Below the pieces are notes generated by a model that was not told the DNA's origin, did no database searches, and worked only from the letters and a program-made list of their open reading frames with translations. The translations under genes were made by a program, and so were the position numbers. Below are positions 1 to 38,356 of a stretch of DNA of 64,000 nt, piece by piece. Source of the stretch: an uncultured virus (IMG/VR IMGVR_UViG_3300044619_001509) (Duplodnaviria > Heunggongvirae > Uroviricota > Caudoviricetes); IMG/VR virus record IMGVR_UViG_3300044619_001509; one strand, given 5' to 3'. Each line of letters begins with the position of its first letter. Positions within the stretch are counted from its first letter, which is position 1.

Positions 1-159
1 GAGTTCTGTAACTTTGGCGTTCGCAGCGGCTAGTTCTCGCTCAAGTTCTCTGGCGAACCATGCTGGCACGGAAGGTGCGCGGGGAAGACCTCCAGCCGTG
101 TAGGGGTGTTCTGTGACTGAGTCCGTTCTTGGTGTGTTTGTCTTCGGCGTATCACTCAT
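1..159 (-). CDS. Partial hypothetical protein (MSDTPKTNTPRTD...ARELEREL), runs off the window
   Basis: ATG at 159 overlaps the stop of 156..596; shares the MSDTPRTD/ARELEREL motifs with 27289..27585. Confidence 0.65.
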   Translation of the reverse strand, partial: MSDTPKTNTPRTDSVTEHPYTAGGLPRAPSVPAWFARELERELAAANAKVTEL

Positions 160-596
160 GGCTGACCTTCTTTCTTTTGATACAACTTGTTGAATTCGTC
201 AATCAAAGATGCAATGCATCTGGCGCCAAATGGATAAACATCTCCAATACTATCCACTACATCATCTGCATCCACCAAAATCTGATGAATACGCGCCTTT
301 TCCCGCTTGCGCTCTTCCTCTTTTTCCTTCTGTTCGTACTCCTGAATTTTGATTTTCAGAGCCTGGTTTTCTGCGATCAATTGGTTGATCATCTCTCCCT
401 TTGCCCATAACTGATCCTGCGTGATCGGCTTCCCTGACAGTTCTGGCATGTAGCTTTTATTGCAACGCTGATAGTGGTTCTTCCACGCACAGCCACATGC
501 CGAACACCACTCATCCCCTGTCTGGGCAATGCAAGCAACGATTTCTTCTTCGGTGAGTTTTGGTCCAAGATAATCTTTGTAGATCTTTGTGTCCAT
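156..596 (-). CDS. Hypothetical early protein with CxxC motif and coiled coil
   Basis: ORF; TTGACT-16-TACAAT promoter ends 6 nt before the ATG. Confidence 0.8.
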   Translation of the reverse strand: MDTKIYKDYLGPKLTEEEIVACIAQTGDEWCSACGCAWKNHYQRCNKSYMPELSGKPITQDQLWAKGEMINQLIAENQALKIKIQEYEQKEKEEERKREKARIHQILVDADDVVDSIGDVYPFGARCIASLIDEFNKLYQKKEGQP

Positions 597-631
597 GGCG
601 CTATTGTACCTCTGTTGCCTGTGAAGTCAAG

Positions 632-705
632 TGCTTCGGGTGGGACTTGAACCCACGGCCAATCGGTTAAAAGCCGATTGCTCTACCAGACTGAGCTACC
701 GAAGC
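632..705 (-). tRNA. tRNA-Lys(TTT)
   Basis: Full cloverleaf: GCTTCGG/CCGAAGC acceptor stem, ATCGG-CTTTTAA-CCGAT anticodon arm, TTCAAGT T-loop. Confidence 0.95.
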
Positions 706-714
706 AAGAAATTA

Positions 715-978
715 TTAGATTTCTTCTTCGGAATCCAGTTCTGCTTCTCGACTTTCGTACGCCACAAGAATGGAGTGATCAATCACGGAATGCACGGCGT
801 CGAAGTCACCGCAACCCGTTTCGATGAGATCCATCATCTCATCATTCGTGATCTCTTCGGGAACGCCGCTGAAGTCGCGGGCGTCTTCGATTGTGCGCCA
901 GAACGCAATCAGATGCGTGGCGCCTTCTCGTTCGAGCTGGTCAAGGGTAGTGCGAAGGTTGTCAATGGTGATGAGCAT
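715..978 (-). CDS. Acidic hypothetical early protein
   Basis: ORF with its own leaderless promoter (985-1012). Confidence 0.75.
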   Translation of the reverse strand: MLITIDNLRTTLDQLEREGATHLIAFWRTIEDARDFSGVPEEITNDEMMDLIETGCGDFDAVHSVIDHSILVAYESREAELDSEEEI

Positions 979-1017
979 GGTGCTATTGTACTCCTTTGGC
1001 CTCGAGAATCAAGGGGG

Positions 1018-1200
1018 TCAGATGGTGATTTCGGTCAGATCGTCAACAATGGTGATGTTATCGCGCGCCTCGTCCCAATCTTCCGTTTCCTGAAAATGCT
1101 TTGCAACACGATCAACATTGATTGGCTTGTTGCTCTTGATTCGGTAAACGAAAGGAGAGCAATGGCGGAACTCGACAATGGCGATTGCTTCGTACTTCAT
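1018..1200 (-). CDS. Hypothetical early protein
   Basis: ORF with its own leaderless promoter (1207-1234). Confidence 0.75.
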   Translation of the reverse strand: MKYEAIAIVEFRHCSPFVYRIKSNKPINVDRVAKHFQETEDWDEARDNITIVDDLTEITI

Positions 1201-1267
1201 GGTGTCATTGTACTCCTGTTGCCACAGACATCAAGCCATTCAGAGAATTATTTCCTTTTACGAAATC

Positions 1268-1330
1268 TCGCTTGATGTGACTGGCCAATGTGGTATAATA
1301 AGGATAGGTCGTTCGCGGCGCTGTCGAAGC
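1268..1330 (+). repeat. Promoter-core repeat, copy 1 (core forward)
   Basis: TTGATG(1272)-16-TATAAT(1294)-AAGGATAGG...GCGCTGTCGAAGC(1318-1330). Confidence 0.9.
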
Positions 1331-1345
1331 CAAAAAATAAAAGAA

Positions 1346-1510
1346 CCCACCCAAGGCTTCCACAGGGAGATCCTCACCTGCGGTAACCTTGGAGTGGGCA
1401 TTTGTGTGTAGCGAAGGTCGCCGCGCCTTTTCGAGTGTGATATATCACATCTTTTCGTGAACAAAGTTCACCTTAGCCTGCTTGTCAGGTACTACACATT
1501 TTTATTGCTT
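1346..1510. ncRNA. Candidate structured RNA/DNA: long hairpin plus five-way junction
   Basis: CCCACCCAAGG/CCTTGGAGTGGG hairpin (1346-1398); TGTGTAG(1405)/CTACACA(1492) closes four short hairpins. Confidence 0.45.
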
Positions 1511-2092
1511 TTAGAACGGCGGGTTGGACTTAGGCGCACAGTTTCGATAGAACTCTTGGAAACGCCGCTCGTCTCGTTCGCGCATCTTGCGGGCTTCGCG
1601 CTTAATGAGGGCTTCGCGCTCCTCTTCTCCACAGCGTGCATATTCATTCATCTGGTCGTCGCCGTGAAGAAGATCCTCAACCACCTCCTCAAGTTCGCCC
1701 ACATCGGCGCGGAGATTCTCAATGATGCCAAGTGCCCCGTTCATGGAAGCACCAAGGTCACCACCCACCACATCGGCCATCTCAGAAAACTCTTCGCAGA
1801 AGCGGTTGATTGAATCGTTCTCACGGTCGAAGAAGTCGCAGTCTTCCTCTTCGGGATCCGCGAATGGCGGAATCGGCCGCGCGTCACGCTCTTCAAGAAG
1901 CGCCTCAGCAAGTCGGTCGTTATCGCCCGAAACATCGGAAAGGCGAGTGATCAATGCGTCAAAGAAATCCTGCTCAACCAAGCCGAGTTCACCGTTCCAA
2001 GTGGTGTTGATGTATCGCCCAATGGCGAGCAATTCCTTGGTGGTCAGGAGGGCGAAAGAATTACTGTCGAGAATGTTGTCGTAGTTGGTCAT
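1511..2092 (-). CDS. Acidic hypothetical early protein
   Basis: ORF with leaderless promoter (2099-2126). Confidence 0.8.
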   Translation of the reverse strand: MTNYDNILDSNSFALLTTKELLAIGRYINTTWNGELGLVEQDFFDALITRLSDVSGDNDRLAEALLEERDARPIPPFADPEEEDCDFFDRENDSINRFCEEFSEMADVVGGDLGASMNGALGIIENLRADVGELEEVVEDLLHGDDQMNEYARCGEEEREALIKREARKMRERDERRFQEFYRNCAPKSNPPF

Positions 2093-2131
2093 GGGGTCAT
2101 TGTACTCCTGTTGCCTGTGAAGTCAAGTGGG

Positions 2132-2848
2132 TCAGCACTTATAGGTTGAATGAAATCCGAGCTCCGCAGCCGTCCTCTGTGCTGCCTTGCAGCCAGGAAC
2201 CATCCAATCGTAGAGAGCAGAACATCGACCGCGAGGACTCGTCAGAACCGAATGCACACCGAAGTCGATGCACACATGGCGACCCTGCCAGAGCATGAAA
2301 TTGGACGCATGGAGGTCGCCGCCGAGACAGATGCCAGAACCCGAAGGCACAAGAACATCCTTTTCGGAAGCGAAAATGTCATTCAGAAGAGTGCCAGTGA
2401 GATTCACACGGCGCAGACTTCGGCGAAGGTTCTGCACGAACGGAACCTGTGACAATCGCGTATGTCTGATGCCAGTCAGAACTGACTTCGTCTTTTCGTC
2501 AAGCTGTTCCGCTCGAGCCGTCTGATATGCGCCGCGAGTGTACGCGATATTAGAACGCTTATCAACTCGCTTGACGAGAAAGAGACTGCCCACAGGCGGC
2601 GCCAGACCTTCCTGAAAGGCACGGTACTGGCGCTGATACGAAGCCAGGCACTCTTCCACCTTATCGAACATCTTCAAGGCGAACGAATCTTCTTTGTTCA
2701 CTTCCGAATTCATCGGATAGAAGATGGAACTGCAGCCAGAGCGAACACCTTCTTCCAAAGAAAAGTTAAGTTCCATGCCTTCGACATGAAACCACTTGTA
2801 GCCCATGCGTCCGTAGGTGACGCCCGTGATGTAGTCTTCGATCTTCAT
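2132..2848 (-). CDS. Protein kinase-like fold enzyme
   Basis: ALKMF (beta3 Lys), DLHASN catalytic loop, IDFG motif; leaderless promoter. Confidence 0.75.
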   Translation of the reverse strand: MKIEDYITGVTYGRMGYKWFHVEGMELNFSLEEGVRSGCSSIFYPMNSEVNKEDSFALKMFDKVEECLASYQRQYRAFQEGLAPPVGSLFLVKRVDKRSNIAYTRGAYQTARAEQLDEKTKSVLTGIRHTRLSQVPFVQNLRRSLRRVNLTGTLLNDIFASEKDVLVPSGSGICLGGDLHASNFMLWQGRHVCIDFGVHSVLTSPRGRCSALYDWMVPGCKAAQRTAAELGFHSTYKC

Positions 2849-2878
2849 GGTGAGATTGTACTCCTATGGCCAAAGGAA

Positions 2879-3103
2879 TCAAGCTCCTTCGTAAACATCG
2901 TAAGCAGGCTTCTCGCACGAAATGCCGTGGCGAACCGAAAGGTCGATCCGCATCTGAAGCAGCAGCTCGGCCAGATTCTGAAGATTCTGGTCGGTCGCGA
3001 GAGGCGTGCGCCGATCATCCCGCAGCGCGGTCAGAATCATGTACGCAATGTCGAAGATGGCCGCCTGATCTTGCGGGGTGAGGTTGGAGATGTCGTTGCT
3101 CAT
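2879..3103 (-). CDS. Hypothetical early protein (MSNDISN)
   Basis: Start reassigned to the ATG 6 nt below the -10 box TACAAT at 3110-3115. Confidence 0.7.
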   Translation of the reverse strand: MSNDISNLTPQDQAAIFDIAYMILTALRDDRRTPLATDQNLQNLAELLLQMRIDLSVRHGISCEKPAYDVYEGA

Positions 3104-3168
3104 GCTGCCATTGTACTCCAACCGCCCATCACATCAAGCACTTTCGCATTAAAATCTTTTTTAGTTTT

Positions 3169-3228
3169 CTCGCTTGATGCCAGTGGCCAATCAGGTAGAA
3201 TAAGGATAGGTCGCAGCTGCGACAGCGC
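3169..3228 (+). repeat. Promoter-core repeat, copy 2 (core inverted)
   Basis: TTGATG(3174)-16-TAGAAT-AAGGATAGG...GCTGCGACAGCGC(3216-3228). Confidence 0.9.
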
Positions 3229-3243
3229 GATAATAAAAATAAA

Positions 3244-3276
3244 ACCACCCACACGGTCGCAGGGCGTGTGGGTGGT
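3244..3276 (-). terminator. Intrinsic terminator
   Basis: ACCACCCACACG/CGTGTGGGTGGT stem followed by a T-run on the minus strand. Confidence 0.7.
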
Positions 3277-3306
3277 CGATAGGGGACGCTGCGACCGCGC
3301 CTTGTC

Positions 3307-3480
3307 CTACCAGTTGTCTTCCCGCCAGTGATCCCCGTCCCAGTCGCCGTCTTCGGGGTACTCATCCTCGTCATCCGCGTAGGCCATGGCACTGGCCTCG
3401 TCCTCCTCCTCACACCATCGGAGGAAATCTTCATGCGAACCGTACTCGGCGTCTTCCATGTTGTTGTCTTCGGGGTTCAT
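3307..3480 (-). CDS. Very acidic 57-aa protein (MNPEDNN)
   Basis: ORF with leaderless promoter; D/E-rich. Confidence 0.7.
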   Translation of the reverse strand: MNPEDNNMEDAEYGSHEDFLRWCEEEDEASAMAYADDEDEYPEDGDWDGDHWREDNW

Positions 3481-3584
3481 GCGTGCATTGTACTCCATTC
3501 GCCTGTCGAGTCAAGGGGTCTTCGTCACAGAATCTTTGGCTTCTTCGGTTTGGGTTTCTTCGCCATCATACTCCAATGTAATGT

Positions 3585-3649
3585 GCCCCGCCCCTCATAC
3601 GACGAGGGGCGGGGCGTTGGTGTGTAGTGGGGCGTAACCGTTACGCCCC
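3585..3649. repeat. Two strong inverted repeats
   Basis: GCCCCGCCCCTC-7-GAGGGGCGGGGC and GGGGCGTAAC-C-GTTACGCCCC. Confidence 0.85.
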
Positions 3650-3663
3650 TGTCTCGACTTGAA

Positions 3664-3969
3664 TCACTTCGTCGCAGGGCGCTGCTTCGTCGCACCCTTC
3701 GCAGCGACGAGGGACACACCACCCTTGCGTCCACGGGCGAACTGGACGCGAGTACCGAACTGCGTGGTCAGGAGACGGCGCATCGTCGGGACGGACACAT
3801 TCGCGATCTCCGCGAGGGCGCTCAACTTGTTCTGCTCCTTGAGAGCAGCGGTCACAAGCGTCCACACCTGAGCGTTCAGCACGACAGGCGGGCGTCCGAC
3901 AGGGTTCTTCTGCACGGGGGCGTTAGTGGCGACAGGGTTCTTACCGTTGTTGGGAGTCTTGTTGCTCAT
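3664..3969 (-). CDS. Putative winged helix-turn-helix DNA-binding protein
   Basis: LSALAEIANVSVPTMRRLL HTH pattern, RGRKGG wing, N-terminal GRPP. Confidence 0.65.
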   Translation of the reverse strand: MSNKTPNNGKNPVATNAPVQKNPVGRPPVVLNAQVWTLVTAALKEQNKLSALAEIANVSVPTMRRLLTTQFGTRVQFARGRKGGVSLVAAKGATKQRPATK

Positions 3970-4035
3970 GCGATCATTATACTATGTCCTTCGTTCACCT
4001 CAAGCCCCTTGCACGAAGATTTTTTTCGCAGATTT

Positions 4036-4094
4036 CTCGGTTGATGTGATAGGCCAATGTGGTACAATCAAGGTAGGCGGCGCGCTGTCGCAGC
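4036..4094 (+). repeat. Promoter-core repeat, copy 3 (core forward)
   Basis: TTGATG(4041)-16-TACAAT...GCGCTGTCGCAGC(4082-4094). Confidence 0.85.
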
Positions 4095-4169
4095 TGAGAG
4101 TCCGTATAACTCAAAGAGAATGTGTACGAAGATGCTTGATGTGATGGGCGGGTATGGTATACTTCTCGT

Positions 4170-4421
4170 ATGAACACCAACACCCACAACTTCTCCCCCG
4201 TCGAAATCGTTGCAAACCTCGACATGGTCGGCACTCTCCTCTGCACGATCCATAACGGTGTGCCCTGCCCGCCCGAGGTGATGGTGGCTGCGCTCATCGT
4301 CCTCCGCGAGACGCGAGATGAAATCGCGGAGAAGCACGGCATCGGTGATGAGTCGCAGTACCAGTCTGTGCAGTACACGGCTGCCATGATGCTGCGGGAT
4401 TTGGAGGGGGATGAGGGTTGA
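4170..4421 (+). CDS. Hypothetical early protein
   Basis: ORF with a TTGATG...TATACT promoter ending 6 nt upstream. Confidence 0.75.
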   Translation: MNTNTHNFSPVEIVANLDMVGTLLCTIHNGVPCPPEVMVAALIVLRETRDEIAEKHGIGDESQYQSVQYTAAMMLRDLEGDEG

Positions 4422-4451
4422 TCCCTCTGGCCTTCGGAGTACAATGAATCC

Positions 4452-4625
4452 ATGAACAACGGTTTCATCATTCGTCCCCGAACGGATCGCCCCACTCGCA
4501 ACGAAGAGATCCTTGAACGGATCAGGAAGGGAACGCGCTCCAAGACCTGGAGTCGCGGAAACCGTCCCGAAGACGCCCGAGCAGATCGAAGGGCAGCGAA
4601 GCGCGATCTTCGCAGAGAGTTCTAA
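4452..4625 (+). CDS. Arg-rich 57-aa protein (MNNGFIIRPRTDR...), not in the ORF track
   Basis: TTGATC-16-TACAAT-6-ATG; followed by a terminator. Confidence 0.7.
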   Translation: MNNGFIIRPRTDRPTRNEEILERIRKGTRSKTWSRGNRPEDARADRRAAKRDLRREF

Positions 4626-4640
4626 TGACTCTCCATTGCC

Positions 4641-4683
4641 TGGAAGACCCCCTGTGGTGTGGGGGTCTTCCCTTTTTTCTTTT
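4641..4683 (+). terminator. Intrinsic terminator
   Basis: GGAAGACCCCC/GGGGGTCTTCC stem followed by a T-run. Confidence 0.8.
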
Positions 4684-4696
4684 GAACTTTCTGAAT

Positions 4697-4765
4697 CTCG
4701 CTTGATGCCACTGGCGTATGTGGTATAATCAGGATAGGCGCGGCGCTGTCTAACGCTGTCGAAGC
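4697..4765 (+). repeat. Promoter-core repeat, copy 4 (core forward, partly doubled)
   Basis: TTGATG(4702)-16-TATAAT...GCGCTGTC-TAA-CGCTGTCGAAGC. Confidence 0.9.
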
Positions 4766-4780
4766 TGTAGAAATCAAGCC

Positions 4781-5035
4781 TCAAAGCAAGAAATTTGTAT
4801 AAAAAGATCTTGGGGCAGCTCGGTCGATGTCCCAATAAATCAGAATCTCGAGCCCTTCGCTCGTCGTTGTGATTCCCATTCGGTCACGCCAAGCCATCGG
4901 AATGCGGCCACGGGCGTATCGAAACTGTCCATTGGCCTTTCGATACTTGAATAAGACCGTGCGATTCTTTCGCAGGTCGTTTTCAAGTTGAAATGGTCGA
5001 TTTCGGTAACTAAGGTACTGAGCCTTAGGTTTCAT
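4781..5035 (-). CDS. WYL_2/DUF2693-like SH3 beta-barrel protein
   Basis: FKYRKANGQFRYARG ... IYWDID..PRSF pattern. Confidence 0.6.
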   Translation of the reverse strand: MKPKAQYLSYRNRPFQLENDLRKNRTVLFKYRKANGQFRYARGRIPMAWRDRMGITTTSEGLEILIYWDIDRAAPRSFYTNFLL

Positions 5036-5176
5036 TTTGTTTTTCTTCCTCTTCTTTCACAACCTCTTCGAGCCGTTGAATTGTTGGCGTCCAGTCCTCG
5101 AGCCCATCGGCAGTTTCTTGTTTGAGTTGCGCGATTGTGTGCTTGAGCCTTTCCTTGAAAGGAATCATCGTGTCTT

Positions 5177-5806
5177 TCACGATCCATCCTCTGAAGGAAA
5201 CCGCTGGGTTCGATAGGGGACTTCTGCGTTCTTAAGCACATAATCAAAACTCATCTTGGCCTTCTGCTTGTCCTTCGGAACCCAAATCGCAATCTCTTCC
5301 AACGGATAACCGTTAACGAAAAGCCAAGAGTTCATACCCCTATTGGGGTGGGTATCGAGAATGAAGCCGACCTCCTTCAGGATCTTCGGAAATCCGTACT
5401 TCCAACCCGAAGGTGGATCGACCATGATGGCGCCCACGCTTCCGTTCAGATGAGGATTTCTTGCGGAGACAGACGGGCACTCGTCCTCGTAGTCCTCGTC
5501 CTCGTAGTCCTCGTCCTCGTCATCGTCATCGTAGCAGTCTCCAAACTCACCCTCATCATTCACGAGGCCTGTGCTGTAGCCCTCGTGGTCTTTAGAGAGC
5601 GCATCCAACTCGTCCTTAAGATCGGAAATCTGCTGCTTCAGACCCGCGATCTCCTCGTCGCGAGTACCCATGAGGTGCATGGCATCCTCATGGACTCGCT
5701 TCCACCCCTCCAGGTCAGCACGAAGCTTGCTGTTCTCTTCGCAGAGATGGCAGATCGTCCGCAGGGCGTTGTCCATGGTCGTCTGGGTTTCGTAGTAGTT
5801 GCTCAT
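5177..5806 (-). CDS. Coiled-coil protein with an acidic DEDYE tract and DPPSGWKYGFPK motif
   Basis: ORF with leaderless promoter. Confidence 0.8.
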   Translation of the reverse strand: MSNYYETQTTMDNALRTICHLCEENSKLRADLEGWKRVHEDAMHLMGTRDEEIAGLKQQISDLKDELDALSKDHEGYSTGLVNDEGEFGDCYDDDDEDEDYEDEDYEDECPSVSARNPHLNGSVGAIMVDPPSGWKYGFPKILKEVGFILDTHPNRGMNSWLFVNGYPLEEIAIWVPKDKQKAKMSFDYVLKNAEVPYRTQRFPSEDGS

Positions 5807-5836
5807 GGTGCTATTGTACCTCTGTTGCCTGTGGAG

Positions 5837-6133
5837 TCAAGCCGTTTTGTTGAAAGAAAATGCCGCCTTGCCGCCCTGAGTCACTTCAACCTTAGACCAG
5901 TTGAGATGAGGCAGGTATTCGTTTAGGGCACGATTGAATGAAGCCTTGTCCTCAACCGTCTTGTATTGGGTTGGAGGGAACATGGTTATCCACGCCACGG
6001 TCTCCCCTGCGGGAGATGTGTCTGTGTGATGAATGTACGCACGGAAAGAAAACTCCGTATCATCATCCACATTCGAGCCCCATGTCTTCAGACGAAAGTG
6101 CTTATTGGTGGTGGTGACTTCGGAGTGTTCCAT
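5837..6133 (-). CDS. Hypothetical early protein (MEHSEVT)
   Basis: Start reassigned to the ATG 6 nt below the -10 box. Confidence 0.7.
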   Translation of the reverse strand: MEHSEVTTTNKHFRLKTWGSNVDDDTEFSFRAYIHHTDTSPAGETVAWITMFPPTQYKTVEDKASFNRALNEYLPHLNWSKVEVTQGGKAAFSFNKTA

Positions 6134-6198
6134 GCGTCTATTGTACCCATGTAGCCCCACACATCAAGTACTTTCGGAAATATTTTTTTGTGGATTGT

Positions 6199-6256
6199 TC
6201 GCTTGTGGTGACTGGCCAATGTGGTATCATAAGGATAGGTCACGGCCGCGACAGCG
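6199..6256 (+). repeat. Promoter-core repeat, copy 5 (core inverted)
   Basis: TTGTGG(6203)-16-TATCAT-AAGGATAGG...GCCGCGACAGCG. Confidence 0.9.
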
Positions 6257-6328
6257 TTTGAGTCCAAATAACTCCACCCACACTACACCAGTATGGGGGA
6301 GTCGCTTGGTTTGTGTTGTGCGCGGGCA

Positions 6329-6712
6329 CTACCACCAAGAGTAGTAGTAAACCGCGTTCCCGTTGGCGATCTCTTCCCGCGCCTTCGCCACGAATGCCAG
6401 ATCTTCCTGATCCGATTCCACATTCGGCGGATTGTTACCGAAGAAGAATCCCTGAGTCGCAGGCAGACGGCGCTCCCGAATGTCGGCCTCGAGCCGATCA
6501 AGGTCTTCGGGAAGCAGACGGACGGTCGTGCAGTTGAACTCGCTCTCGCCGCCCTTCTGAATGTAAAGATTCTCCATCCATCCGTGCAGGTCGTGATGCT
6601 TTCGCCAATACTGAATCTCTTCGGCCTCCCCATTGGGAAGGCGAACATCGACCATCTTGTCGGCGGGAACCTTCGTTGACGGAACCGAGAATGCGTTCAT
6701 GTCCAAGCCCAT
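6329..6712 (-). CDS. Conserved phage protein (MGLDM...YWRKH.DLHGWM...YYSWW family)
   Basis: Recognisable widespread phage motif; AAGGAG RBS. Confidence 0.8.
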   Translation of the reverse strand: MGLDMNAFSVPSTKVPADKMVDVRLPNGEAEEIQYWRKHHDLHGWMENLYIQKGGESEFNCTTVRLLPEDLDRLEADIRERRLPATQGFFFGNNPPNVESDQEDLAFVAKAREEIANGNAVYYYSWW

Positions 6713-6798
6713 GCGTTTGTCTCCTTGTGTTGAGTCGATTGTATCACACTAGCCACACACATCAAGTACCTTGACGAAAGAAATAAATCTTTGAATCA

Positions 6799-6861
6799 CG
6801 CTTGATGTCACTGGCGCATCTGATATAATCAGGATAGGTGGACTCGCGGCGCTGTCGAAGC
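6799..6861 (+). repeat. Promoter-core repeat, copy 6 (core forward)
   Basis: TTGATG(6802)-16-TATAAT-CAGGATAGG...GCGCTGTCGAAGC. Confidence 0.9.
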
Positions 6862-6970
6862 TGTAAAAAAACCACGCCCAGGCCAATCAAGCGGGCGTGG
6901 TCGAGGCCGATGGAAGACGGCCTTCTTATTAGTCGTTGTCGTTGAGCAGCACGCTCACCTCTTGCGCCAC

Positions 6971-7264
6971 TCATGCGCGCAACTGCTGGCGAATGGTTTC
7001 ATTGCCACTCGTCATTCGGGCGATCTCGGCGTCGTTGCGGAGGTGCGTGTGGATCCTCGCGTCTGGCACAGAGCGCCAAGCCTTCAGGTCGTCACTCATC
7101 TCGTCGACGATGGTCTTCAGGGCGTTGATGGCTGCGTTGTTTGGGTTGTAGATGTCGGCGATGGTGATCTCGGCGAACAACTTGCCGAGCAGCGAGGCAT
7201 GAACAAGTCGGTCTGGCGTCATATTCGCGTCGATGTGCTTGAAGTTGGTGGTGGTGTTGCTCAT
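6971..7264 (-). CDS. Hypothetical early protein (MSNTTTNF)
   Basis: ORF with leaderless promoter. Confidence 0.75.
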   Translation of the reverse strand: MSNTTTNFKHIDANMTPDRLVHASLLGKLFAEITIADIYNPNNAAINALKTIVDEMSDDLKAWRSVPDARIHTHLRNDAEIARMTSGNETIRQQLRA

Positions 7265-7332
7265 GTATGAAGTATACCATAGGTGCCTGTCACATCAATA
7301 CCCTTCGCAAAGGAAATAAATCTTTCTTTTCT

Positions 7333-7395
7333 CGCTTGATGTCACTGGCGCATCTGATATAATCAGGATAGATGAACTCGCGGCGCTGTCGAAGC
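7333..7395 (+). repeat. Promoter-core repeat, copy 7 (core forward)
   Basis: TTGATG(7336)-16-TATAAT...GCGCTGTCGAAGC. Confidence 0.9.
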
Positions 7396-7466
7396 CGACA
7401 AAAATGACAAGACCCCCGTACTACTCTTCGGGGGGTCTCGCCAGAGGAATCGCCACCACTAGCGAC

Positions 7467-7769
7467 TCACTCATCAGGAAGATCAGGCAATCGTCGGGCG
7501 TCTTGAACCGAGCCGCGCTCTCGCAAGGACGGTTCGAGCCAGCTGCGCCCTTGAAGGTTCGTGTATGCGTCTTCGATCAGAAGAGCAAGTTCGGGCGCAT
7601 TGCCCGTCAGCTTCTCTTCGTTGAAGAATCCATCCCAGTCGAAAAGGATCACGGATGCGTTTCCGATGCGCGTCTCAAGATCCTTCACTTCAATCTTGAG
7701 CGCGGCGTTCTCTGCCTGAAGGCGAAGAATCTGATCCTCGTAGCTGGACTTTGTTTGCTTGTCGCTCAT
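7467..7769 (-). CDS. Coiled-coil protein, paralog of 20498..20764
   Basis: ILFDWDGFF..TGN...LA..I.DAY..L.G motif shared with 20498..20764. Confidence 0.8.
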   Translation of the reverse strand: MSDKQTKSSYEDQILRLQAENAALKIEVKDLETRIGNASVILFDWDGFFNEEKLTGNAPELALLIEDAYTNLQGRSWLEPSLRERGSVQDARRLPDLPDE

Positions 7770-7799
7770 GGGATCATTGTACTCCTTCTGCCTGTGGAA

Positions 7800-8087
7800 T
7801 CAACCACAATCAGGACGAGAATCGGGATTGTACGGAATATCCAAAGACCACGCTCCGCTCTCGTTCTTTCCGAAGTTGAGAGTTTCCATCACTTGCAGAA
7901 CTTCGGGAGAATCTGAAAGATTCTTTTCCCATTCGTAGATCGGTTCGGAAGAACCAATAACACGAACCGTCTGAACAAACCACAGAATCTCGTCATCCAC
8001 CACCTGCGAACGCAGATCGACATGGTATCCGATATCGTCAACCGTGAGCGTGAGCGTGAGTGTGAGGAGTGGTGTGGTGTTGCTCAT
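7800..8087 (-). CDS. Hypothetical early protein (MSNTTPLL)
   Basis: ATG 6 nt below TATAAT. Confidence 0.7.
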   Translation of the reverse strand: MSNTTPLLTLTLTLTVDDIGYHVDLRSQVVDDEILWFVQTVRVIGSSEPIYEWEKNLSDSPEVLQVMETLNFGKNESGAWSLDIPYNPDSRPDCG

Positions 8088-8155
8088 GGGATCATTATAC
8101 CATGCTAGCTGCACACATCAAGCACTTCCACAAAAGATTTATTTCTTCAAATGTA

Positions 8156-8212
8156 CGCTTGAGGTGACTGGCCAATGTGGTATAATAAGGATATACCCCG
8201 CCGCGACAGCGC
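8156..8212 (+). repeat. Promoter-core repeat, copy 8 (core inverted)
   Basis: TTGAGG(8159)-16-TATAAT-AAGGATA...GCCGCGACAGCGC. Confidence 0.9.
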
Positions 8213-8282
8213 CTTGAGTGTAAATAACCCCACCCCGTACGAGACACGGGGTGGGGTTGAGATTTGTTTGAGTTGTTCGGGA

Positions 8283-8690
8283 TCAGTCGATGGGAGTCAC
8301 CGTAACTCCCACCACCGTTCGCTTTCCCTTGCAGGAACGCTCCTGCTGCGTCCGCATCATCGTCTTGAGCGCAGCAATCTGCGCGTCCCGTGCGGGATTC
8401 GCTTGCACCGCTGCGAGTCGCGTCCTCACAGCGTCCTCACCTTCCGACACAAGATTCGCAATCCCTTCCCGCACCGCACCGCACGATGCGTAGAGCAGGA
8501 AGAGAACCTGCTCAGGACTTCCCGCAGTCCAAATGCTCTGCGTGTAGTCCTCACCCTTGCGGATGCACCCGCGAACGCGAATCGACAGATCGAAGTTGTT
8601 ATCACCTGCGACGAGCGGGAGTTCCTTCAGCATCTCCGCTGCTGCGCTTGCGAGATCGTCCTTACCGATGTTGTGAGTGGTGTTGCTCAT
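8283..8690 (-). CDS. Hypothetical early protein (MSNTTHNIG)
   Basis: ATG 6 nt below TATACT. Confidence 0.75.
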   Translation of the reverse strand: MSNTTHNIGKDDLASAAAEMLKELPLVAGDNNFDLSIRVRGCIRKGEDYTQSIWTAGSPEQVLFLLYASCGAVREGIANLVSEGEDAVRTRLAAVQANPARDAQIAALKTMMRTQQERSCKGKRTVVGVTVTPID

Positions 8691-8758
8691 GCACACAGTA
8701 TACCACACCCTTCCCACACCTCAAGTACCTTGACGAAAGAAATAAATCTTTCTTTTCT

Positions 8759-8821
8759 CTCTTGTGGTGACTGGCCAATCGGATATAATCAGGATAGGTG
8801 GATTTGCGGCGCTGTCGAAGC
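8759..8821 (+). repeat. Promoter-core repeat, copy 9 (core forward)
   Basis: TTGTGG(8762)-16-TATAAT-CAGGATAGG...GCGCTGTCGAAGC. Confidence 0.9.
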
Positions 8822-8899
8822 CGACAAAAATGACAAGACCCCCGTACTACTCTTCGGGGGGTCTTGTCAGAGATTCGGTCGCCACCACTTGCGACCGAC

Positions 8900-9142
8900 C
8901 TACAGGAGTTCTTCAACGGTGGAGTCGAGAGCCGACCAGTCGATGTCGGCGTCAGCCAGAGACACATCATCAGGCGTGCGGCCAGTAGGAAAGATGTCCT
9001 TGGCGATGGCCTTCGCGTCCCAGCCCTTTCGGGCGAGGTATCGCGCCTGCTTGTACATGCCTTCGTCGTTCGAGATCCACAGGGCGATGTTCCAAGTGGC
9101 GTAGTTCGCCCATCCGTTGTACTGTTGAGTGGTGTCGCTCAT
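8900..9142 (-). CDS. Conserved phage protein (YNGWANYATWNIALWISNDEG family)
   Basis: Recognisable motif of aquatic phage hypothetical proteins; leaderless promoter. Confidence 0.8.
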   Translation of the reverse strand: MSDTTQQYNGWANYATWNIALWISNDEGMYKQARYLARKGWDAKAIAKDIFPTGRTPDDVSLADADIDWSALDSTVEELL

Positions 9143-9211
9143 GGAATGATTATAGCACGACCGCCCCATACATCAAGCACTTCCGCAAAAGATTTATTTC
9201 TTTGAAATGTA

Positions 9212-9269
9212 CGCTTGATGCCACTGGCCAATGTGGTATCATAAGGATAGGCCACCGCCGCGACAGCGC
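9212..9269 (+). repeat. Promoter-core repeat, copy 10 (core inverted)
   Basis: TTGATG(9215)-16-TATCAT-AAGGATAGG...GCCGCGACAGCGC. Confidence 0.9.
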
Positions 9270-9344
9270 CCTCCGATAACAAACGAGAACACCCCGCGTC
9301 CTGCGCGGGGTGGGTTTGGTGTGCGTGTTGGGTTCGGGGGTGAT

Positions 9345-9722
9345 TCAGAAACCGCTGCTCCACCCGATCATTCGGGTGAACTTCCCGCGTCCACCGAAGC
9401 GGCGCTGGAGGAACTTGCGGAGCGCGTTCCCCATCTGCGCGTCACACTTGAAGGTGACGGACGCGCTCCCCCCGTGAGCGAGGATGTCCGTACCGTCACA
9501 CCAACCCGAAGCGAAGAGCGCGTTGCTGTACTTCGCGGGGAGCGCATCCGCGAGACGCTTCAACTTATCCGCACCCGCGTTCGACGCGGTGAAGCGGTAG
9601 AAGTGCGCGGGACGGACGAAGGTGGGAGCGGTGTAGTTCGACGGGATGGGGAGCAGCATCTGCATGGTGGAATCTCCTGAGAAGAACCCAACACCCGCAA
9701 CGAGCGGGAAGGTGTTCTTCAT
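9345..9722 (-). CDS. Hypothetical early protein
   Basis: ORF with leaderless promoter. Confidence 0.75.
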   Translation of the reverse strand: MKNTFPLVAGVGFFSGDSTMQMLLPIPSNYTAPTFVRPAHFYRFTASNAGADKLKRLADALPAKYSNALFASGWCDGTDILAHGGSASVTFKCDAQMGNALRKFLQRRFGGRGKFTRMIGWSSGF

Positions 9723-9804
9723 GTACGAAGTATACCATACCCGTCTGTCACATCAATACCCTTGACGAAGAAAAGAAAATTTCTATTCTGGTCGGATTTC
9801 CTAT

Positions 9805-9851
9805 TCTCGCCAAAGGCCAGTCTGTTATAATAAAGATAGGCGGCGACAGCG
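9805..9851 (+). repeat. Promoter-core repeat, copy 11 (degenerate, core inverted)
   Basis: GGCCAGTCTGT-TATAAT-AAAGATAGG-CGGCGACAGCG; -35 box lost. Confidence 0.7.
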
Positions 9852-9959
9852 TTAATGTAAACCAATCAATATGTCAATGAAAGTTCTTTCAAAGAACTGT
9901 CAAGAATACACGCAAGTCTTAAATGTGAAAATAACAGTGCCAAATGAAAAAAATCTCTG

Positions 9960-10145
9960 GGGGCCCCACGAAACTAGACCCCACCCCCCTTTTTCTTTAA
10001 GTTTTTCTCTATGGGACTCCAAGATCATTCCAAGATCATTTTATGGGACTCCAAGTTTTCCCTCCAAGTTTTTTTCTAGAAATTTTAAGCCCCACCCCCC
10101 TTTTTCTGGCACGATTTCCTATGGGTTCCCCCCCTCCCTCTTTCT
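9960..10145. repeat. Non-coding junction with short direct repeats
   Basis: CCCCACCCCCCTTTTTCT x2, TATGGGACTCCAAG x2, CCAAGATCATT x2. Confidence 0.75.
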
Positions 10146-10186
10146 CTTGGTTGACACCCCCGAGAGATTCTGGTATACTGGCACAC

Positions 10187-10483
10187 ATGACTAACAATAA
10201 AGCCATTTACGAAGATGACATTCATGAATTAGACTCCTATAAATTCATCATTGTCAAAATTAACAAAAATAGTGAGCGGGCTTTTATACCGCTACTCTAC
10301 AATGCTTTGCCCAATAGAGTGAAAGTGTTTTCTTCCATTGAAGAAGCGAAGAAAACCATTGAAGGGGCTGCAATCGCTCTTGGTATTGACATTGAATGGA
10401 ATACTGAGTGTGATTCTTACATTTGTGAAACAACAGATTTAGTTGATGGAATTAAAATTGAGATTTGGAGGATCTGGATCTGA
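10187..10483 (+). CDS. Hypothetical protein (MTNNKAIY)
   Basis: TTGACA-17-TATACT promoter ends 7 nt before the ATG. Confidence 0.75.
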   Translation: MTNNKAIYEDDIHELDSYKFIIVKINKNSERAFIPLLYNALPNRVKVFSSIEEAKKTIEGAAIALGIDIEWNTECDSYICETTDLVDGIKIEIWRIWI

Positions 10484-10529
10484 TATGGAAACCCATAAAT
10501 CTCGTGGCTAAACAAAAAGGAAACAACCA

Positions 10530-10892
10530 ATGAGAATTAAGATTTTTTCTAGTTTTGAGGAATATAGCCGTCAATACAACTGGCATTTGTGGTATGCATG
10601 GCATCCCATTTTGATAGATGGTACTATTGTGTGGATGGAAAAAGTTTACCGCAAACGGTTAGCAACTACCACTAGACGGTGGTGTTATAAAATCGATGAA
10701 TACGACTCCAATGGAAATCTGATCCATTCCAAGGATAGTGATGGATTTGAGACTTGGCATGAATATGATGCCAATGGCAATCTGATCCATTACAAGAGCA
10801 GTGGTGGAGTTGAGTCTTGGTACGATTCATTCGGGAAGAAGATTGACAAGCTACAGTCAACTGGGGTAAAATACCACAATGACCAACACTAA
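10530..10892 (+). CDS. YD-like repeat protein with an N-terminal WxxWYAWHP domain
   Basis: EYDSNGNLIH...GFETW repeats. Confidence 0.8.
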   Translation: MRIKIFSSFEEYSRQYNWHLWYAWHPILIDGTIVWMEKVYRKRLATTTRRWCYKIDEYDSNGNLIHSKDSDGFETWHEYDANGNLIHYKSSGGVESWYDSFGKKIDKLQSTGVKYHNDQH

Positions 10893-11076
10893 CCCCATTT
10901 ACGAATACGATGCCAATGGCAATCAGATCCATTACAAGAGCATTGGTGGATTTGAGCGTTGGTGTGAATATGATGCCGATGGCAACTGTATCCATTACAA
11001 GGACAGTAAAGGAATTGAGAATTGGTTCGATTCTGAGGGAAATGTGATTGATAAGCCACAGTCAACTGGGGTATAA
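10879..11076 (+). CDS. YD-like repeat protein
   Basis: EYDANGNxIHYK repeats. Confidence 0.8.
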   Translation: MTNTNPIYEYDANGNQIHYKSIGGFERWCEYDADGNCIHYKDSKGIENWFDSEGNVIDKPQSTGV

Positions 11077-11083
11077 TAGCACA

Positions 11084-11407
11084 ATGAGCGACATCGAACC
11101 TATTAGTGAATATGACTCCAATGGCAATCTGATCTATTTAAAGCACAGTGATGGATATGAGTCATGGCGGGAATACGACTCAAATAACAATGAGATCCAT
11201 TTCAAGAATAGTGATGGATTTGAGTATTGGCAAGAATACGACTCCAATAATAATATAATCCATTACAAGCAGAGGAGTGATGAATATGAGTCTTGGCGTG
11301 AATACGACTCCAATAATAATGAAATCCATTACAAGAATAGTGATGGAGTTGAGGAATGGTACGACTCCCATGGCAATATGATTGACAATCCCACAAAGGA
11401 AGGGTAA
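11084..11407 (+). CDS. YD-like repeat protein (MSDIEPISEY)
   Basis: Four ~22-aa EYDSNNNxIHYK repeats. Confidence 0.85.
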   Translation: MSDIEPISEYDSNGNLIYLKHSDGYESWREYDSNNNEIHFKNSDGFEYWQEYDSNNNIIHYKQRSDEYESWREYDSNNNEIHYKNSDGVEEWYDSHGNMIDNPTKEG

Positions 11408-11416
11408 AATACTATA

Positions 11417-11776
11417 ATGACTGACGAAATTAAACCAAATCAAATGACCAAGAACGAATTCATGGCAAGTTATGGACACTGTGATGTTTCTTTGGAACGG
11501 ATTGAGGCTGACTCGTATAAAGTAGGTACTGTAAGAAGTGTGACGAAAACCTACATTATTATGAGTGGATATCTTGGTATGAAAAAAGAATTTCAGATTT
11601 ATGTAAAATTTTGCACGGCGTATAACATCGGGGTTCTTAAAAAGGGTATTTCTCCTTCTCATGTTTACAAGGTTCATCAATTTGACGCTGAATACATGGC
11701 GGTGAAGTCTGTGGAAACTGGAAAGATTGTGAATGAATGTTCTATTCAATTTGATATTTCAAAGTATACCCAATGA
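11417..11776 (+). CDS. Hypothetical protein
   Basis: ORF with a leaderless promoter embedded in the end of the previous gene. Confidence 0.7.
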   Translation: MTDEIKPNQMTKNEFMASYGHCDVSLERIEADSYKVGTVRSVTKTYIIMSGYLGMKKEFQIYVKFCTAYNIGVLKKGISPSHVYKVHQFDAEYMAVKSVETGKIVNECSIQFDISKYTQ

Positions 11777-12033
11777 GCAACATTGAAATGATTAGTCATT
11801 ACGATCCTAACGGTAATTTGATCTATTTAAATAATAACGGTTACGAGGCTTGGTATGAGTACGATACTGGCGGTAGATGTATTCACGCCAGATATTCAAA
11901 CGAATTTGAGACTTGGTACAAGTACGATGAAAATGGCAATTATGTTTACTACGAAGATTCCGAAGGAGTCAAAGTGTGGTACGATTCAAAGGGGAATGTA
12001 ATTGACTCCGTGGGGGCAACCGAGGTACAATAG
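11773..12033 (+). CDS. YD-like repeat protein
   Basis: YDxNGN repeats. Confidence 0.8.
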   Translation: MSNIEMISHYDPNGNLIYLNNNGYEAWYEYDTGGRCIHARYSNEFETWYKYDENGNYVYYEDSEGVKVWYDSKGNVIDSVGATEVQ

Positions 12034-12303
12034 CAACATGAGTAACAGTGAACCTATTAGTGAATACGACTCCAATGGCAATCTGATTCATTTCAGGAAT
12101 AGTACTGGATTTGAGACTTGGCGTGAATACGATGCCAATAACAATATGATCTATGCCAAGAACAGTACTGGATATGAGACTTGGCGCGAATACGATGCCA
12201 ATAACAATATGATCCATTACAAGGACAGTACTGAATATGAGGCGTGGTACGATTCAAAGGGGAATGTAATTGACTCCGTGGGGGCAACCGAGGTACAATA
12301 GCA
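11976..12303 (+). repeat. Identical 60-bp direct repeat (11976-12035 and 12244-12303)
   Basis: GTGGTACGATTCAAAGGGGAATGTAATTGACTCCGTGGGGGCAACCGAGGTACAATAGCA occurs twice. Confidence 0.9.
12038..12301 (+). CDS. YD-like repeat protein (MSNSEPISEY)
   Basis: EYDANNNMI repeats. Confidence 0.85.
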   Translation: MSNSEPISEYDSNGNLIHFRNSTGFETWREYDANNNMIYAKNSTGYETWREYDANNNMIHYKDSTEYEAWYDSKGNVIDSVGATEVQ

Positions 12304-19643: not shown

Positions 19644-19716
19644 GCCCTTATAGCTCAGTTGGTAGAGCAGCAGCCTTTTAAGCCGACGGTCGTAGGTTCG
19701 ATCCCTACTGGGGGCA
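19644..19716 (+). tRNA. tRNA-Lys(TTT), anticodon stem with two mismatches
   Basis: Cloverleaf; GCAGC-CTTTTAA-GCCGA. Confidence 0.85.
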
Positions 19717-19792
19717 CTTCAATTGTAGAAACAGTAATTAGATGATGAATTATTGTTTCTTGTCTTGTATACATCATCTGAGGATTTTTGCT

Positions 19793-35886: not shown

Positions 35887-36111
35887 ATGTTCAACTATAG
35901 CGATCCCATTATCAAATCAATTGCCGAAAGATATCATCGTATTCTTCAAGAAAGTCACCCAAGAGAACGACTTGTGAAGTTATCCAAAGAAGAATTGGAA
36001 AAACTAAAAGCAGAATATAAACAAAAAGTAGAGCAAACTGATGATAAAGATAAAGCAGCAGAGCATAAAAAAGAATATGACATGATAATTGACATATTGA
36101 AGACAAAGTGA
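35887..36111 (+). CDS. Late charged protein
   Basis: CATAAATA promoter; RBS; ILQE motif. Confidence 0.7.
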   Translation: MFNYSDPIIKSIAERYHRILQESHPRERLVKLSKEELEKLKAEYKQKVEQTDDKDKAAEHKKEYDMIIDILKTK

Positions 36112-36129
36112 TATAATACGGATTAAATT

Positions 36130-37745: not shown

Positions 37746-38356
37746 TTTTTACAGCAGTGACATTCTATACAAACGATTACTACAGAGAACAAATTAAAAT
37801 TTTAAGTAATTCTTGTAAAAAATTTGAAATACCTTTAATTATTACAGAAGTAGAAGATAAGGGTTCTTGGGTGAAGAATTGTGCATTTAAAGCATACTAC
37901 TTGTATGAAATGCTACACACAACAAACACAAATATTGTGTGGTTGGATGCGGATTCTTGCATAATGAAGTATCCAGAATTATTTGGTAGCATTAAAGAAG
38001 ATTTTGCTATTCGTGCTGAGCCTGGTCTTCGAACAAAGAAACCTGTAGGAAGAGAAATTATTTCTTTACCAGAAAATTGGCCAAAGGATATTGATCCTTG
38101 TTGGTTTAACTCTGGTACAATCTTTTTAAAGAACAACGACAAAACAAAAGAATTGTGTAGAAGATGGTTACAATTGTCTACGACAAATACAACTGATTGG
38201 GATCAATGGACTTTACAGCAAGCATGGTGTGATGTTCAACCTTCTACTTATTGGTTGCCCAAAGAATATTGTCAAATTAAGAAACTACACGGAGAGCAGG
38301 GTTCTGTAATTCTGCACGAATTAGCATCTGTTTCTCAGAAAGTGGATAGATCGTGA
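37742..38356 (+). CDS. Nucleotide-diphospho-sugar transferase (GT-A)
   Basis: SW..NC..K, VWLDAD, NSGTIF, DQ..LQ. Confidence 0.8.
   Translation: MIFTAVTFYTNDYYREQIKILSNSCKKFEIPLIITEVEDKGSWVKNCAFKAYYLYEMLHTTNTNIVWLDADSCIMKYPELFGSIKEDFAIRAEPGLRTKKPVGREIISLPENWPKDIDPCWFNSGTIFLKNNDKTKELCRRWLQLSTTNTTDWDQWTLQQAWCDVQPSTYWLPKEYCQIKKLHGEQGSVILHELASVSQKVDRS

Follow-up and report, generated by a model that had tools for sequence, protein, structure and literature searches.

To our knowledge, promoter-early stem-loop cassettes (PeSLs) are the only mechanism that has been proposed for the shuffling of the many small early genes of T4-type phages. As described in the available portions of two papers, a PeSL combines a stem-loop, an AT-rich region, a sigma70 promoter, a Shine-Dalgarno sequence and a start codon, and is found in hyperplastic regions (Comeau et al. 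2014, PMC4122927); the cassettes are repeated between ORFan genes of T4-type phages and have been implicated in indels, replacements and mini-circles (PMC4122927; PMC2839356). In the available portion of PMC4122927 the PeSLs are one-way and no divergent or bidirectional form is described, and the words 'antisense' and 'bidirectional' are absent from the available main text of Arbiol et al. 2010 (PMC2839356). A full-text literature search on phage early regions with divergent or antisense promoters returned nothing comparable. The present analysis concerns a window of 64,000 nucleotides (nt), the whole stretch of DNA analysed from the uncultured virus IMGVR_UViG_3300044619_001509 (IMG/VR). From position 1 to ~9.86 kb the window forms a GC-rich island of small minus-strand genes (57-238 codons, mostly ORFans; two genes at 4170-4625 are on the plus strand), in which a promoter without a gene of its own, here called the orphan promoter, occurs eleven times, each copy followed by a short core motif. 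The arrangement of this sequence element looks like an elaborated form of the PeSL architecture to which two parts have been added.

Three other phage systems offer comparisons. In phage lambda, the short antisense RNA oop is transcribed from promoter Po and converges on the 3' end of cII. The orphan promoters resemble Po in being gene-less and in facing the 3' end of an early gene, so that a short RNA over the neighbour's terminator or 3' end would be expected, and oop is probably the nearest functional model; lambda, however, has a single copy with a defined terminator, whereas here there are eleven copies, most without a clear plus-strand terminator, and a core in addition. The promoters pR and pL of coliphage 186 are convergent and interfere with one another in the lysis-lysogeny switch (the 'sitting duck' model). 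They share with the present case head-on promoters and mutually interfering polymerases, but both drive genes, while here one side is gene-less and a terminator lies between. Phage T7 carries A0, a leftward promoter for the host polymerase in the early region with no downstream gene and no known function; it too is gene-less and within an early region, but is a single copy at the genome end and has neither a repeated module nor a core.

Orphan promoters at unit boundaries

A degenerate pattern of 37 nt, reaching from the -35 box to +3, matched ten times in the window, always on the plus strand, and not once in 100 shuffles; the same family was recovered by MAFFT alignment and by a repeat finder. 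These matches are exactly the ten -35 boxes, from 1272 to 9215, listed in a previous description made from the letters alone (the sequence-only reading). The degenerate copy that it placed near 9826 was found as well, with its -10 box at 9826: this copy (c11; numbering as in Table 1) has lost the -35 box and retains TGT-TATAAT, AAAGATAGG and the core. The element family is real, far beyond chance. Ten of the eleven copies show the features of a sigma70-type promoter (TTGnnn, a spacer of 16-18 nt, TAnnnT and often an extended -10 TG), c11 being the copy without a -35 box, and a start codon at +1 occurs in none, as expected from the earlier account of a promoter-shaped element lacking an open reading frame (ORF). 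That account was also right about the general layout, which is corrected here in that the spacer is 16 nt long and the extended -10 TG is present in eight of the eleven. The orphans read TATAAT(A/C)AGG, with AGG at the position where gene promoters have ATG (ATA in c8, AGA in c7). Two candidate identities were rejected. T4-type late promoters are an improper match because none of the ten TATAAATA sites in the window falls within 1-9900, and a known RNA family is not indicated by Rfam covariance models, which over positions 1-12000 (E <= 1) returned the transfer RNA (tRNA) gene and one sub-threshold overlap of it, and nothing else.

Nine of the ten full copies, together with c11, lie back to back with a leftward gene promoter, in agreement with what had been said of most copies; c4 does not. 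The partner promoters are of the class TTGATG / TGnTATAMT, and in nine of ten the ATG stands six nt past the -10 box with neither a leader nor a Shine-Dalgarno sequence. Along the minus strand a boundary reads: terminator hairpin and T-tract, core of 13-16 bp in either orientation, back-pointing orphan promoter, AT-rich spacer of 36-38 bp, gene promoter, ATG. The 'A-rich run' seen after the core on the plus strand is the T-tract of the minus-strand terminator. In eight copies the partner ATG and the orphan -35 box are separated by 70-73 bp, though the spacer sequences are of several types; the predicted starts would thus lie ~106 bp apart, with room for two back-to-back polymerases.

What the orphan promoter faces differs among copies. 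Its position before the terminator of the next minus-strand gene, with no ORF between, was described for most copies and is borne out in eight of eleven (c1, c2 and c5-c10), not in c3, c4 or c11. Copy c3 faces no terminator and is followed by the plus-strand promoter of a leaderless gene, at 4136, and by two genes on that strand; the convergent gene 4781-5035, part of a minus-strand operon, has its 3' end 45 nt beyond c4, without a hairpin between; and c11 faces a repeat-rich, non-coding switch region (9860-10150). Counting c4, nine of the eleven promoters (c1, c2, c4-c10) converge on the 3' end of a protein gene, at 45-205 nt from predicted start to stop codon. GT-rich tails follow the hairpin in c1, c5, c8 and c10. 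A second class, TTGACT/TTGATT ... GGAGTACAAT, comprises all seven module-less promoters of island genes, as the sequence-only reading had noted for promoters away from the element. They are internal to units, placed straight after the preceding stop codon and without a terminator, and because the module-less promoters are all of this kind, the modules mark the boundaries of units. The proposed array of cassettes is upheld in this form, with units of 1-4 genes instead of 1-3.

The likeness to PeSLs, already drawn in that reading, extends to place, parts and repetition but not to the Shine-Dalgarno sequence. The setting is a genome with T4-type core genes, and no significant family was obtained for 19 of the 21 proteins of the island; the element is a composite repeat of terminator and sigma70 promoter with an AT-rich region, situated among ORFans of a variable region. 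Stem-loop, AT-rich region and sigma70-like -35 and -10 boxes are all present at eight boundaries, and the copies are similar enough to recombine and are visibly mosaic. The differences are that ~100 bp, comprising core and orphan promoter, separate the stem-loop from the AT-rich region; that two parts have been added, a core of 15 bp and a divergent promoter which lacks an ORF and has a conserved early-transcribed region; and that the genes are leaderless and lack a Shine-Dalgarno sequence in nine of ten partners (the exception, 6738-6765, has AAGGAG). The PeSL-type unit of this phage is thereby more elaborate: its divergent promoter has no gene and is strictly conserved, and its motif of 15 bp is one for which inversion is tolerated.

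Orphan and gene promoters share the -35 box, the 16-nt spacing, GGC within the spacer (common to every promoter class of the phage) and the extended -10, and over a length of 28 nt the plus-strand gene promoter at 4136 shares 79% identity with c1 (repeat family D6). Mean pairwise identity over 37 nt is 0.81 among the orphans, 0.63 among the partner gene promoters and 0.76 in the module-less class. As judged from these alignments, the orphan promoters are paralogues of the gene promoters and better conserved than them. Variation affects 18 of the 37 orphan columns and none of the six sigma70-critical positions (TTG of the -35 box; T1, A2 and T6 of the -10 box), which for random placement gives p = 0.012 across ten related copies. 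Similarity also extends beyond the promoter: a block of 156 nt (7291-7446), which begins at the gene -35 box and takes in the whole hairpin, has a counterpart of 87% identity at 8717-8872, and the two are flanked by unrelated genes. All four combinations of two module characters are present. Copy c9 is a mosaic with c7-like flanks and a c1/c8-like centre, c1 combines A after the -10 box with a forward core, and c3 and c5 have a common downstream flank with opposite core orientation. On this sequence pattern, the mosaic copies are taken as a signature of exchange among repeats, and not as evidence of an active inversion switch.

The core motif

The core, (G)GCGCTGTCG[AC][AG]GC[CT]G, follows every copy and is forward in six and reversed in five, the same two orientations as had been reported. 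Its length, previously given as 13 bp, is 15-16 nt when orientation is taken into account, a block of 16 nt (CGCGCTGTCGCAGCTG) being identical between c3 (forward) and c2 (reversed). The window contains 16 instances of the 8-mer CGCTGTCG, where 0.48 would be expected. Eleven occurrences follow the element, forward at 1319, 4083, 4754, 6850, 7384 and 8810 and reversed at 3220, 6249, 8204, 9261 and 9844; the other five fall within coding sequence in the AT-rich part, away from any module. Copy c2 has in addition, past the hairpin, a second and weaker site that resembles the core (3285-3302). Counted from the predicted start, the 8-mer has its first base at +12 to +15 in eight of eleven copies, for which the near-constant distance from the -10 box claimed earlier is correct; it is not so for c3 (+9), c4 (+19) and c11 (+7). 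These same three copies face no terminator and yet have the core, which is absent from the module-less terminators at ~3590-3620 and 4642-4671, so the core belongs to the module and not to the terminator.

No RNA fold around the core is shared across the copies, on which ground a shared RNA structure was rejected, and no common reading frame runs across it. Since it has been retained in either orientation at one and the same position, free of RNA or coding constraint, the core is most simply viewed as a duplex-DNA site, which its sequence makes more likely than an RNA or coding signal. A palindromic operator was rejected, as a contiguous inverted partner half-site of 4-5 bp is present in just three of eleven copies (c2, c7, c9). 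The features of integron attC sites are not found: there is a single asymmetric core per module, and no recombinase family among the 21 island proteins. At +12 to +26 the core falls within the footprint of an orphan-bound polymerase and directly behind the neighbour's terminator, and a protein bound there would block traffic from both sides.

Core orientation is correlated with the base that follows the -10 box, A preceding a reversed core in 5/6 copies and C a forward core in 5/5. Because orientation tracks these two module subtypes, a few ancestral events and recombination among copies are enough to explain it; the 'flipping' core of the sequence-only reading is upheld in its two orientations and is less dynamic than the word suggests. 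That reading had named a winged helix-turn-helix protein (3664-3969) as first choice for a core-binding protein. A winged-helix fold is supported by the structural model, with three helices and a wing (predicted local distance difference test, pLDDT, 79-87 at residues 31-80), and the top Foldseek rows are repressors of the ArsR/SmtB/MarR type at weak E values (0.045 or weaker); the protein is at most a candidate for binding the core. In c6, c7 and c9 the forward core together with AGGATA forms, on the complementary strand, a promoter-like sequence TCGACA-N16-TATCCT (6831-6858, 7365-7392 and 8791-8818, minus strand), face to face with the orphan promoter.

Possible functions of the element

The reading preferred here, to which a probability of roughly one half is given, is that the orphans are real early promoters whose short non-coding or 3'-antisense transcripts run head-on into neighbouring units, with the repeats serving also as homology for cassette shuffling. 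Paralogy of the orphans to working gene promoters, with all sigma70-critical bases retained, is shown by the alignments; what follows is inferred. Host RNA polymerase would start ~7 nt past the orphan -10 box, at the A of AGG, and because this start lies at AGG where gene promoters have ATG, the RNA could not be translated as a leaderless message. The transcript would cross the core and then meet the neighbour's terminator or 3' end head-on. The outcome might be a short non-coding RNA, a 3'-antisense RNA as lambda oop is for cII, or head-on interference that separates the units. To judge from the mosaic copies, the repeated blocks of ~150 bp may double as homology for cassette exchange, as for PeSLs. 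That the core acts at the level of duplex DNA, with a sequence-specific protein for which it would be the operator or roadblock, is a tentative part of the scheme and somewhat doubtful; it is suggested by a sequence kept both ways while no RNA fold or reading frame is kept. If the orphans fire, a non-coding transcript would meet every early unit of the island head-on, a simple design for insulating early genes or for timing their shut-off. The elements are short (~150 bp), and so amenable to work with synthetic fragments and no phage culture.

Several points weigh against this reading. Firing of the orphan promoters is a prediction from their sequence, and in the plus direction terminator-like features are faced by just three of the ten full copies (c6, c8, c10). 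Insulation does not seem to be generally required, because the internal island promoters function with neither a terminator nor an orphan. The p value given above derives from just ten related copies, and the high identity of the copies could stem from gene conversion between repeats and not from selection. The function of the core is a guess, and inverted half-sites in 3/11 copies are weak for a dimeric winged-helix operator. Searches for other carriers of the module also count here. In IMG/VR neither an exact 20-mer nor degenerate module patterns gave any match, nor did the gene-promoter pattern; among JGI metagenome contigs the module pattern matched three loci, all in one unrelated coding sequence and lacking the core; and among GTDB genome contigs it gave one chance match, in a rumen Lachnospiraceae metagenome-assembled genome. 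A more ambitious and distinctly unlikely version makes orphan and core together a dedicated boundary element with a protein that recognises it: an operator, loaded with polymerase and indifferent to orientation, that would insulate the leaderless cassettes and mark their exchange points. Its binder might be encoded in the island, the modelled winged-helix protein being one candidate. If true, the phage would possess a cassette system that has a cis-element to itself and goes beyond the plain homology of PeSLs.

The main rival, which we consider unlikely, is that the orphan is a hitch-hiking relic, an inverted duplicate of a gene promoter carried in a PeSL-like repeat, kept uniform by gene conversion and without function. 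The clear paralogy of the orphans to gene promoters fits such an origin, as do the duplication of entire 150-nt blocks (repeat family D10), the mosaic copies, which would be expected under frequent exchange, and a core orientation that follows two module subtypes. A relic would not be expected to vary only outside the six sigma70-critical positions (p = 0.012), to be more conserved than the partners that drive genes (0.81 vs 0.63), or to hold a constant partner spacing of 70-73 bp across differing spacer sequences, and the early-transcribed AGGATAGG and the core are retained even in c11, which has no -35 box. The mosaic copies would also suit a core on which a site-specific recombinase or an endonuclease of the homing type acts, in an integron-like exchange of cassettes to which the promoter is incidental; an asymmetric motif of 15-16 bp stands at every cassette boundary in either orientation. 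This is improbable, given that 0/21 island proteins match a recombinase, integrase or nuclease family (Pfam, PHROGs, NCBIfam), that the core is no imperfect palindrome, unlike attC, and that the duplicated block has its breakpoints within the gene promoter and past the hairpin instead of at the core.

Transcription can also act on the DNA of the genome as a whole: R-loops prime replication at T4 ori(uvsY) and ori(34), and T7 early promoters help to draw the DNA into the cell. A role of this kind for the orphans, in R-loop priming, DNA entry or as a sink for host RNA polymerase, is quite improbable. All eleven copies are directed toward the rest of the genome, c4 doing so even without a partner gene, and c11 points into the iteron-like strand-switch region; the shared direction is nevertheless trivial where the genes are all on the minus strand, eleven origins within 9 kb are implausible, and we know of no need for transcription in the entry of T4-type phage DNA. 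The A-rich stretch after the core in eight copies, which might be cited in favour, is accounted for by the T-tracts of minus-strand terminators. Were the transcripts instead trans-acting small RNAs, with the core as seed and two mutually complementary classes, one would note that each transcript would carry the core close to its 5' end (+12 to +26) and that forward and reversed cores are complementary over 10-16 nt. Such RNAs are very improbable here, for neither the core nor its complement occurs at a plausible target (the five extra 8-mers are scattered through coding sequence), and neither a conserved fold nor an Rfam match was found. Leaderless micro-peptides are hardly credible. GTG or ATG at +3 in c6, c7 and c9 opens frames of 11-35 codons with similar peptides, but these are three of eleven copies and near-duplicates of one another, the start is 8 nt from the -10 box and not 6, the frame across the core is different in c1, and the remaining copies have no start at all; the micro-ORFs were dropped for their restriction to these three copies and their distance from the -10 box. 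The preferred reading of the orphans as early promoters with head-on transcripts is the one retained.

Island genes, relatives and genome context

Table 1. Positions of the orphan promoter copies, their partner gene promoters, the hairpins they face and the two island genes with a family match
Feature	Positions	Strand	Details
c1, orphan promoter	1272..1333	+	TTGATG-N16-TATAAT, -10 at 1294-1299, AAGGATAGG; predicted start ~1306; forward core 1316-1333
c2, orphan promoter	3174..3230	+	-10 TAGAAT 3196-3201; reversed core 3213-3230
c3, orphan promoter	4041..4097	+	-10 TACAAT 4063-4068; forward core 4080-4097
c4, orphan promoter	4702..4768	+	no divergent partner; near-core 4742-4751; forward core 4751-4768
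c5, orphan promoter	6203..6259	+	TTGTGG / TATCAT; reversed core 6242-6259
c6, orphan promoter	6802..6864	+	forward core 6847-6864
c7, orphan promoter	7336..7398	+	forward core 7381-7398; within repeated block 7291-7446
c8, orphan promoter	8159..8214	+	reversed core 8197-8214
c9, orphan promoter	8762..8824	+	forward core 8807-8824
c10, orphan promoter	9215..9271	+	-10 TATCAT; reversed core 9254-9271
c11, degenerate copy	9804..9854	+	TGT-TATAAT 9826-9831, AAAGATAGG; reversed core 9837-9854
c1 partner promoter	1207..1234	-	TTGATG-N16-TACAAT; ATG of leaderless gene 1018-1200 six nt on
c2 partner promoter	3110..3137	-	leaderless gene 2879-3103
c3 partner promoter	3976..4003	-	leaderless gene 3664-3969, winged-helix protein (modelled)
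c5 partner promoter	6140..6167	-	leaderless gene 5837-6133
c6 partner promoter	6738..6765	-	gene 6329-6712; only partner with leader and AAGGAG Shine-Dalgarno sequence
c7 partner promoter	7271..7298	-	leaderless gene 6971-7264
c8 partner promoter	8094..8121	-	leaderless gene 7800-8087
c9 partner promoter	8697..8724	-	leaderless gene 8283-8690
c10 partner promoter	9149..9176	-	leaderless gene 8900-9142, DUF7249
c11 partner promoter	9729..9756	-	leaderless gene 9345-9722
Terminator-type hairpin faced by c1	1346..1398	-	A-rich run on its plus-strand 5' side = minus-strand T-tract
Terminator hairpin faced by c2	3245..3275	-	of gene 3307-3480
Hairpin faced by c5	6271..6302	-	after gene 6329-6712; GT-rich tail on plus strand
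Terminator hairpin faced by c6	6872..6900	-	T7 tract on minus strand; second hairpin 6903-6924
Hairpin faced by c7	7411..7437	-	after gene 7467-7769
Hairpin faced by c8	8225..8259	-	after gene 8283-8690; terminator-like on plus strand too
Hairpin faced by c9	8831..8869	-	after gene 8900-9142
Hairpin faced by c10	9290..9312	-	after gene 9345-9722; terminator-like on both strands
WYL_2 gene	4781-5035	-	family match above threshold
DUF7249/phrog_871 gene	8900-9142	-	family match above threshold; leaderless

Gene promoters on both strands follow TTGAYN-N16-18-TAYAMT with ATG 5-8 nt past the -10 box. Nearly all island genes have their own TTGAYN-N16-TAYAMT promoter and an ATG six bases past the -10 box, and because of this short distance the island mRNAs, as predicted from sequence, must be leaderless. 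Sites of the TTGA type, counted by hand from a list after rows of other types had been dropped, number 16 before minus-strand island ORFs and ~12 on the plus strand (4.1-4.4, 10.1-19.4 and 31.1 kb). A leaderless design for T4-type early genes was not found described in the full-text literature search, and in the paper on Melnitz, the nearest cultured relative, 'leaderless' occurs only in the title of a reference. Many unrelated early genes share their first codons, ATGAGCAAC(ACC) or M-S-N-(T), with such starts at 3969, 7264, 8087, 8690, 9142, 5806 and 12270; as unrelated genes begin with the same codons, the conserved block extends from the promoter into the first 9-15 coding bases.

Matches above threshold in Pfam, PHROGs and NCBIfam were obtained for two of the 21 island proteins (Table 1), the rest giving none or sub-threshold rows. 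The island genes are nonetheless real, since a protein of 238 amino acids has homologues in metagenomes (P0001, 96% identity; P0002, 90%; P0006, ~50%, on a contig of 156,673 nt); further relatives at the protein level reach 77% (P0013) and 68% (P0014). Long plus-strand frames over the island have a Pfam match in none of eight cases, and real plus-strand genes beneath them were rejected, the frames being antisense shadows of GC-rich genes without a family match. RNA contigs from two metatranscriptome studies lie inside island gene bodies and across unit-internal junctions, and show neither strand, level nor ends; those of run X22 are identical to the window and those of run X23 ~90% alike. No RNA contig spans a module, an absence that in contig data carries no weight as evidence. 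The DNA contigs of runs X16 and X21 (188-1458 nt) are below the length needed to reveal cassette differences. Two apparent 'joints' (4239 to 5492/5507) were discounted, as their sides are just 21-25 nt long and abut an acidic low-complexity repeat. That repeat (GTCCTCGTC…), at 5476-5530 in a protein of 209 amino acids, is the sole source of the 'joints' and draws many unrelated metagenome contigs, with a depth of 90-143 vs 1-5 elsewhere.

A megablast search of the INPHARED phages with the island gave no match. In IMG/VR, relatives of the gp32-type protein (<= 72% identity) are on short contigs, and none were found for the winged-helix protein. The 238-amino-acid protein has five IMG/VR relatives (L084-L088, 31-37% identity). 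The loci L084-L086 carry tRNAs and 3-6 leaderless-type promoters each, but L084-L088 have no repeated 11-mer besides a tRNA arm, and no module is present in the 7.2 kb of L084 examined. L084 has a different intergenic repeat, AGCTACTATC… paired with …TGATAGTAG around short palindromes, at 1840-1920, 3640-3710 and 5990-6070, between the genes of a GC-rich segment with CobS/CobT-like genes.

The window proteins include a gp32-type single-strand DNA-binding protein (PHROGs, E 5e-113), a gp6-type baseplate wedge (8e-133) and, at 49-64 kb, pieces of a gp5-type hub/lysozyme and further baseplate proteins. T4-type late promoters (TATAAATA) lie directly 5' of baseplate genes at 54215 and 61176. Compared with 50,697 phage records, the wedge protein comes closest to Methylophilales phage Melnitz and Pelagibacter phage HTVC008M, at 32.6% identity. 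The island DNA is nearly whole in many lake-water metagenomes, with at least half of the sampled words in 21 of the 24 runs listed; the lake DNA runs X10-X21 contain 52-82% of them. Taken together, the baseplate and gp32 matches, the late promoters and the lake-water runs identify the source, at the level of sequence, as a distant uncultured T4-type myophage of fresh water, from lake metagenomes.

Base composition is very uneven: G+C is 50-55% over bases 1-10,000, 36-41% for most of the next 24 kb and 25% near 46-48 kb. A chimeric assembly at the G+C step (~9,860-9,900) was rejected, since one type of leaderless promoter is used on either side; the promoters at 5840 (minus strand) and 12270 (plus strand) are almost the same sequence across the step, and because the same design occurs on both sides, the step belongs to one genome. 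The adjoining region at 9860-10150, between the leftward and the rightward early genes, contains iteron-like direct repeats, with two exact copies of CCCCACCCCCCTTTTTCT and a third at 83%, two of TATGGGACTCCAAG and two of TCCAAGATCAT in tandem, as well as a 12-nt hairpin (9878-9902), and may be an origin or a control region. Next, at 10800-12300, come small paralogous genes in a row on the plus strand; their conserved 3' ends (…TGGTACGATTC…) lead straight into the -35 box of the next gene's promoter, which overlaps the stop codon.

The window encodes 26 tRNA genes and one transfer-messenger RNA (tmRNA). The main tRNA array and the tmRNA (tag ANTMAMAA) are at 19.6-32.9 kb. There are two genes for tRNA-Lys(UUU), one inside the island (631-705, minus strand), the 3' end of which abuts the -35 box of the next gene promoter, and one at 19644-19717 (plus strand). 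Further to the right, a block of 25-33% G+C (36000-49300) contains fifteen consecutive plus-strand ORFs of 176-332 codons; one gene in it (38958-39956) specifies a nucleotide-sugar epimerase (E 1.5e-84), and the block may be a cluster for sugar or surface modification.

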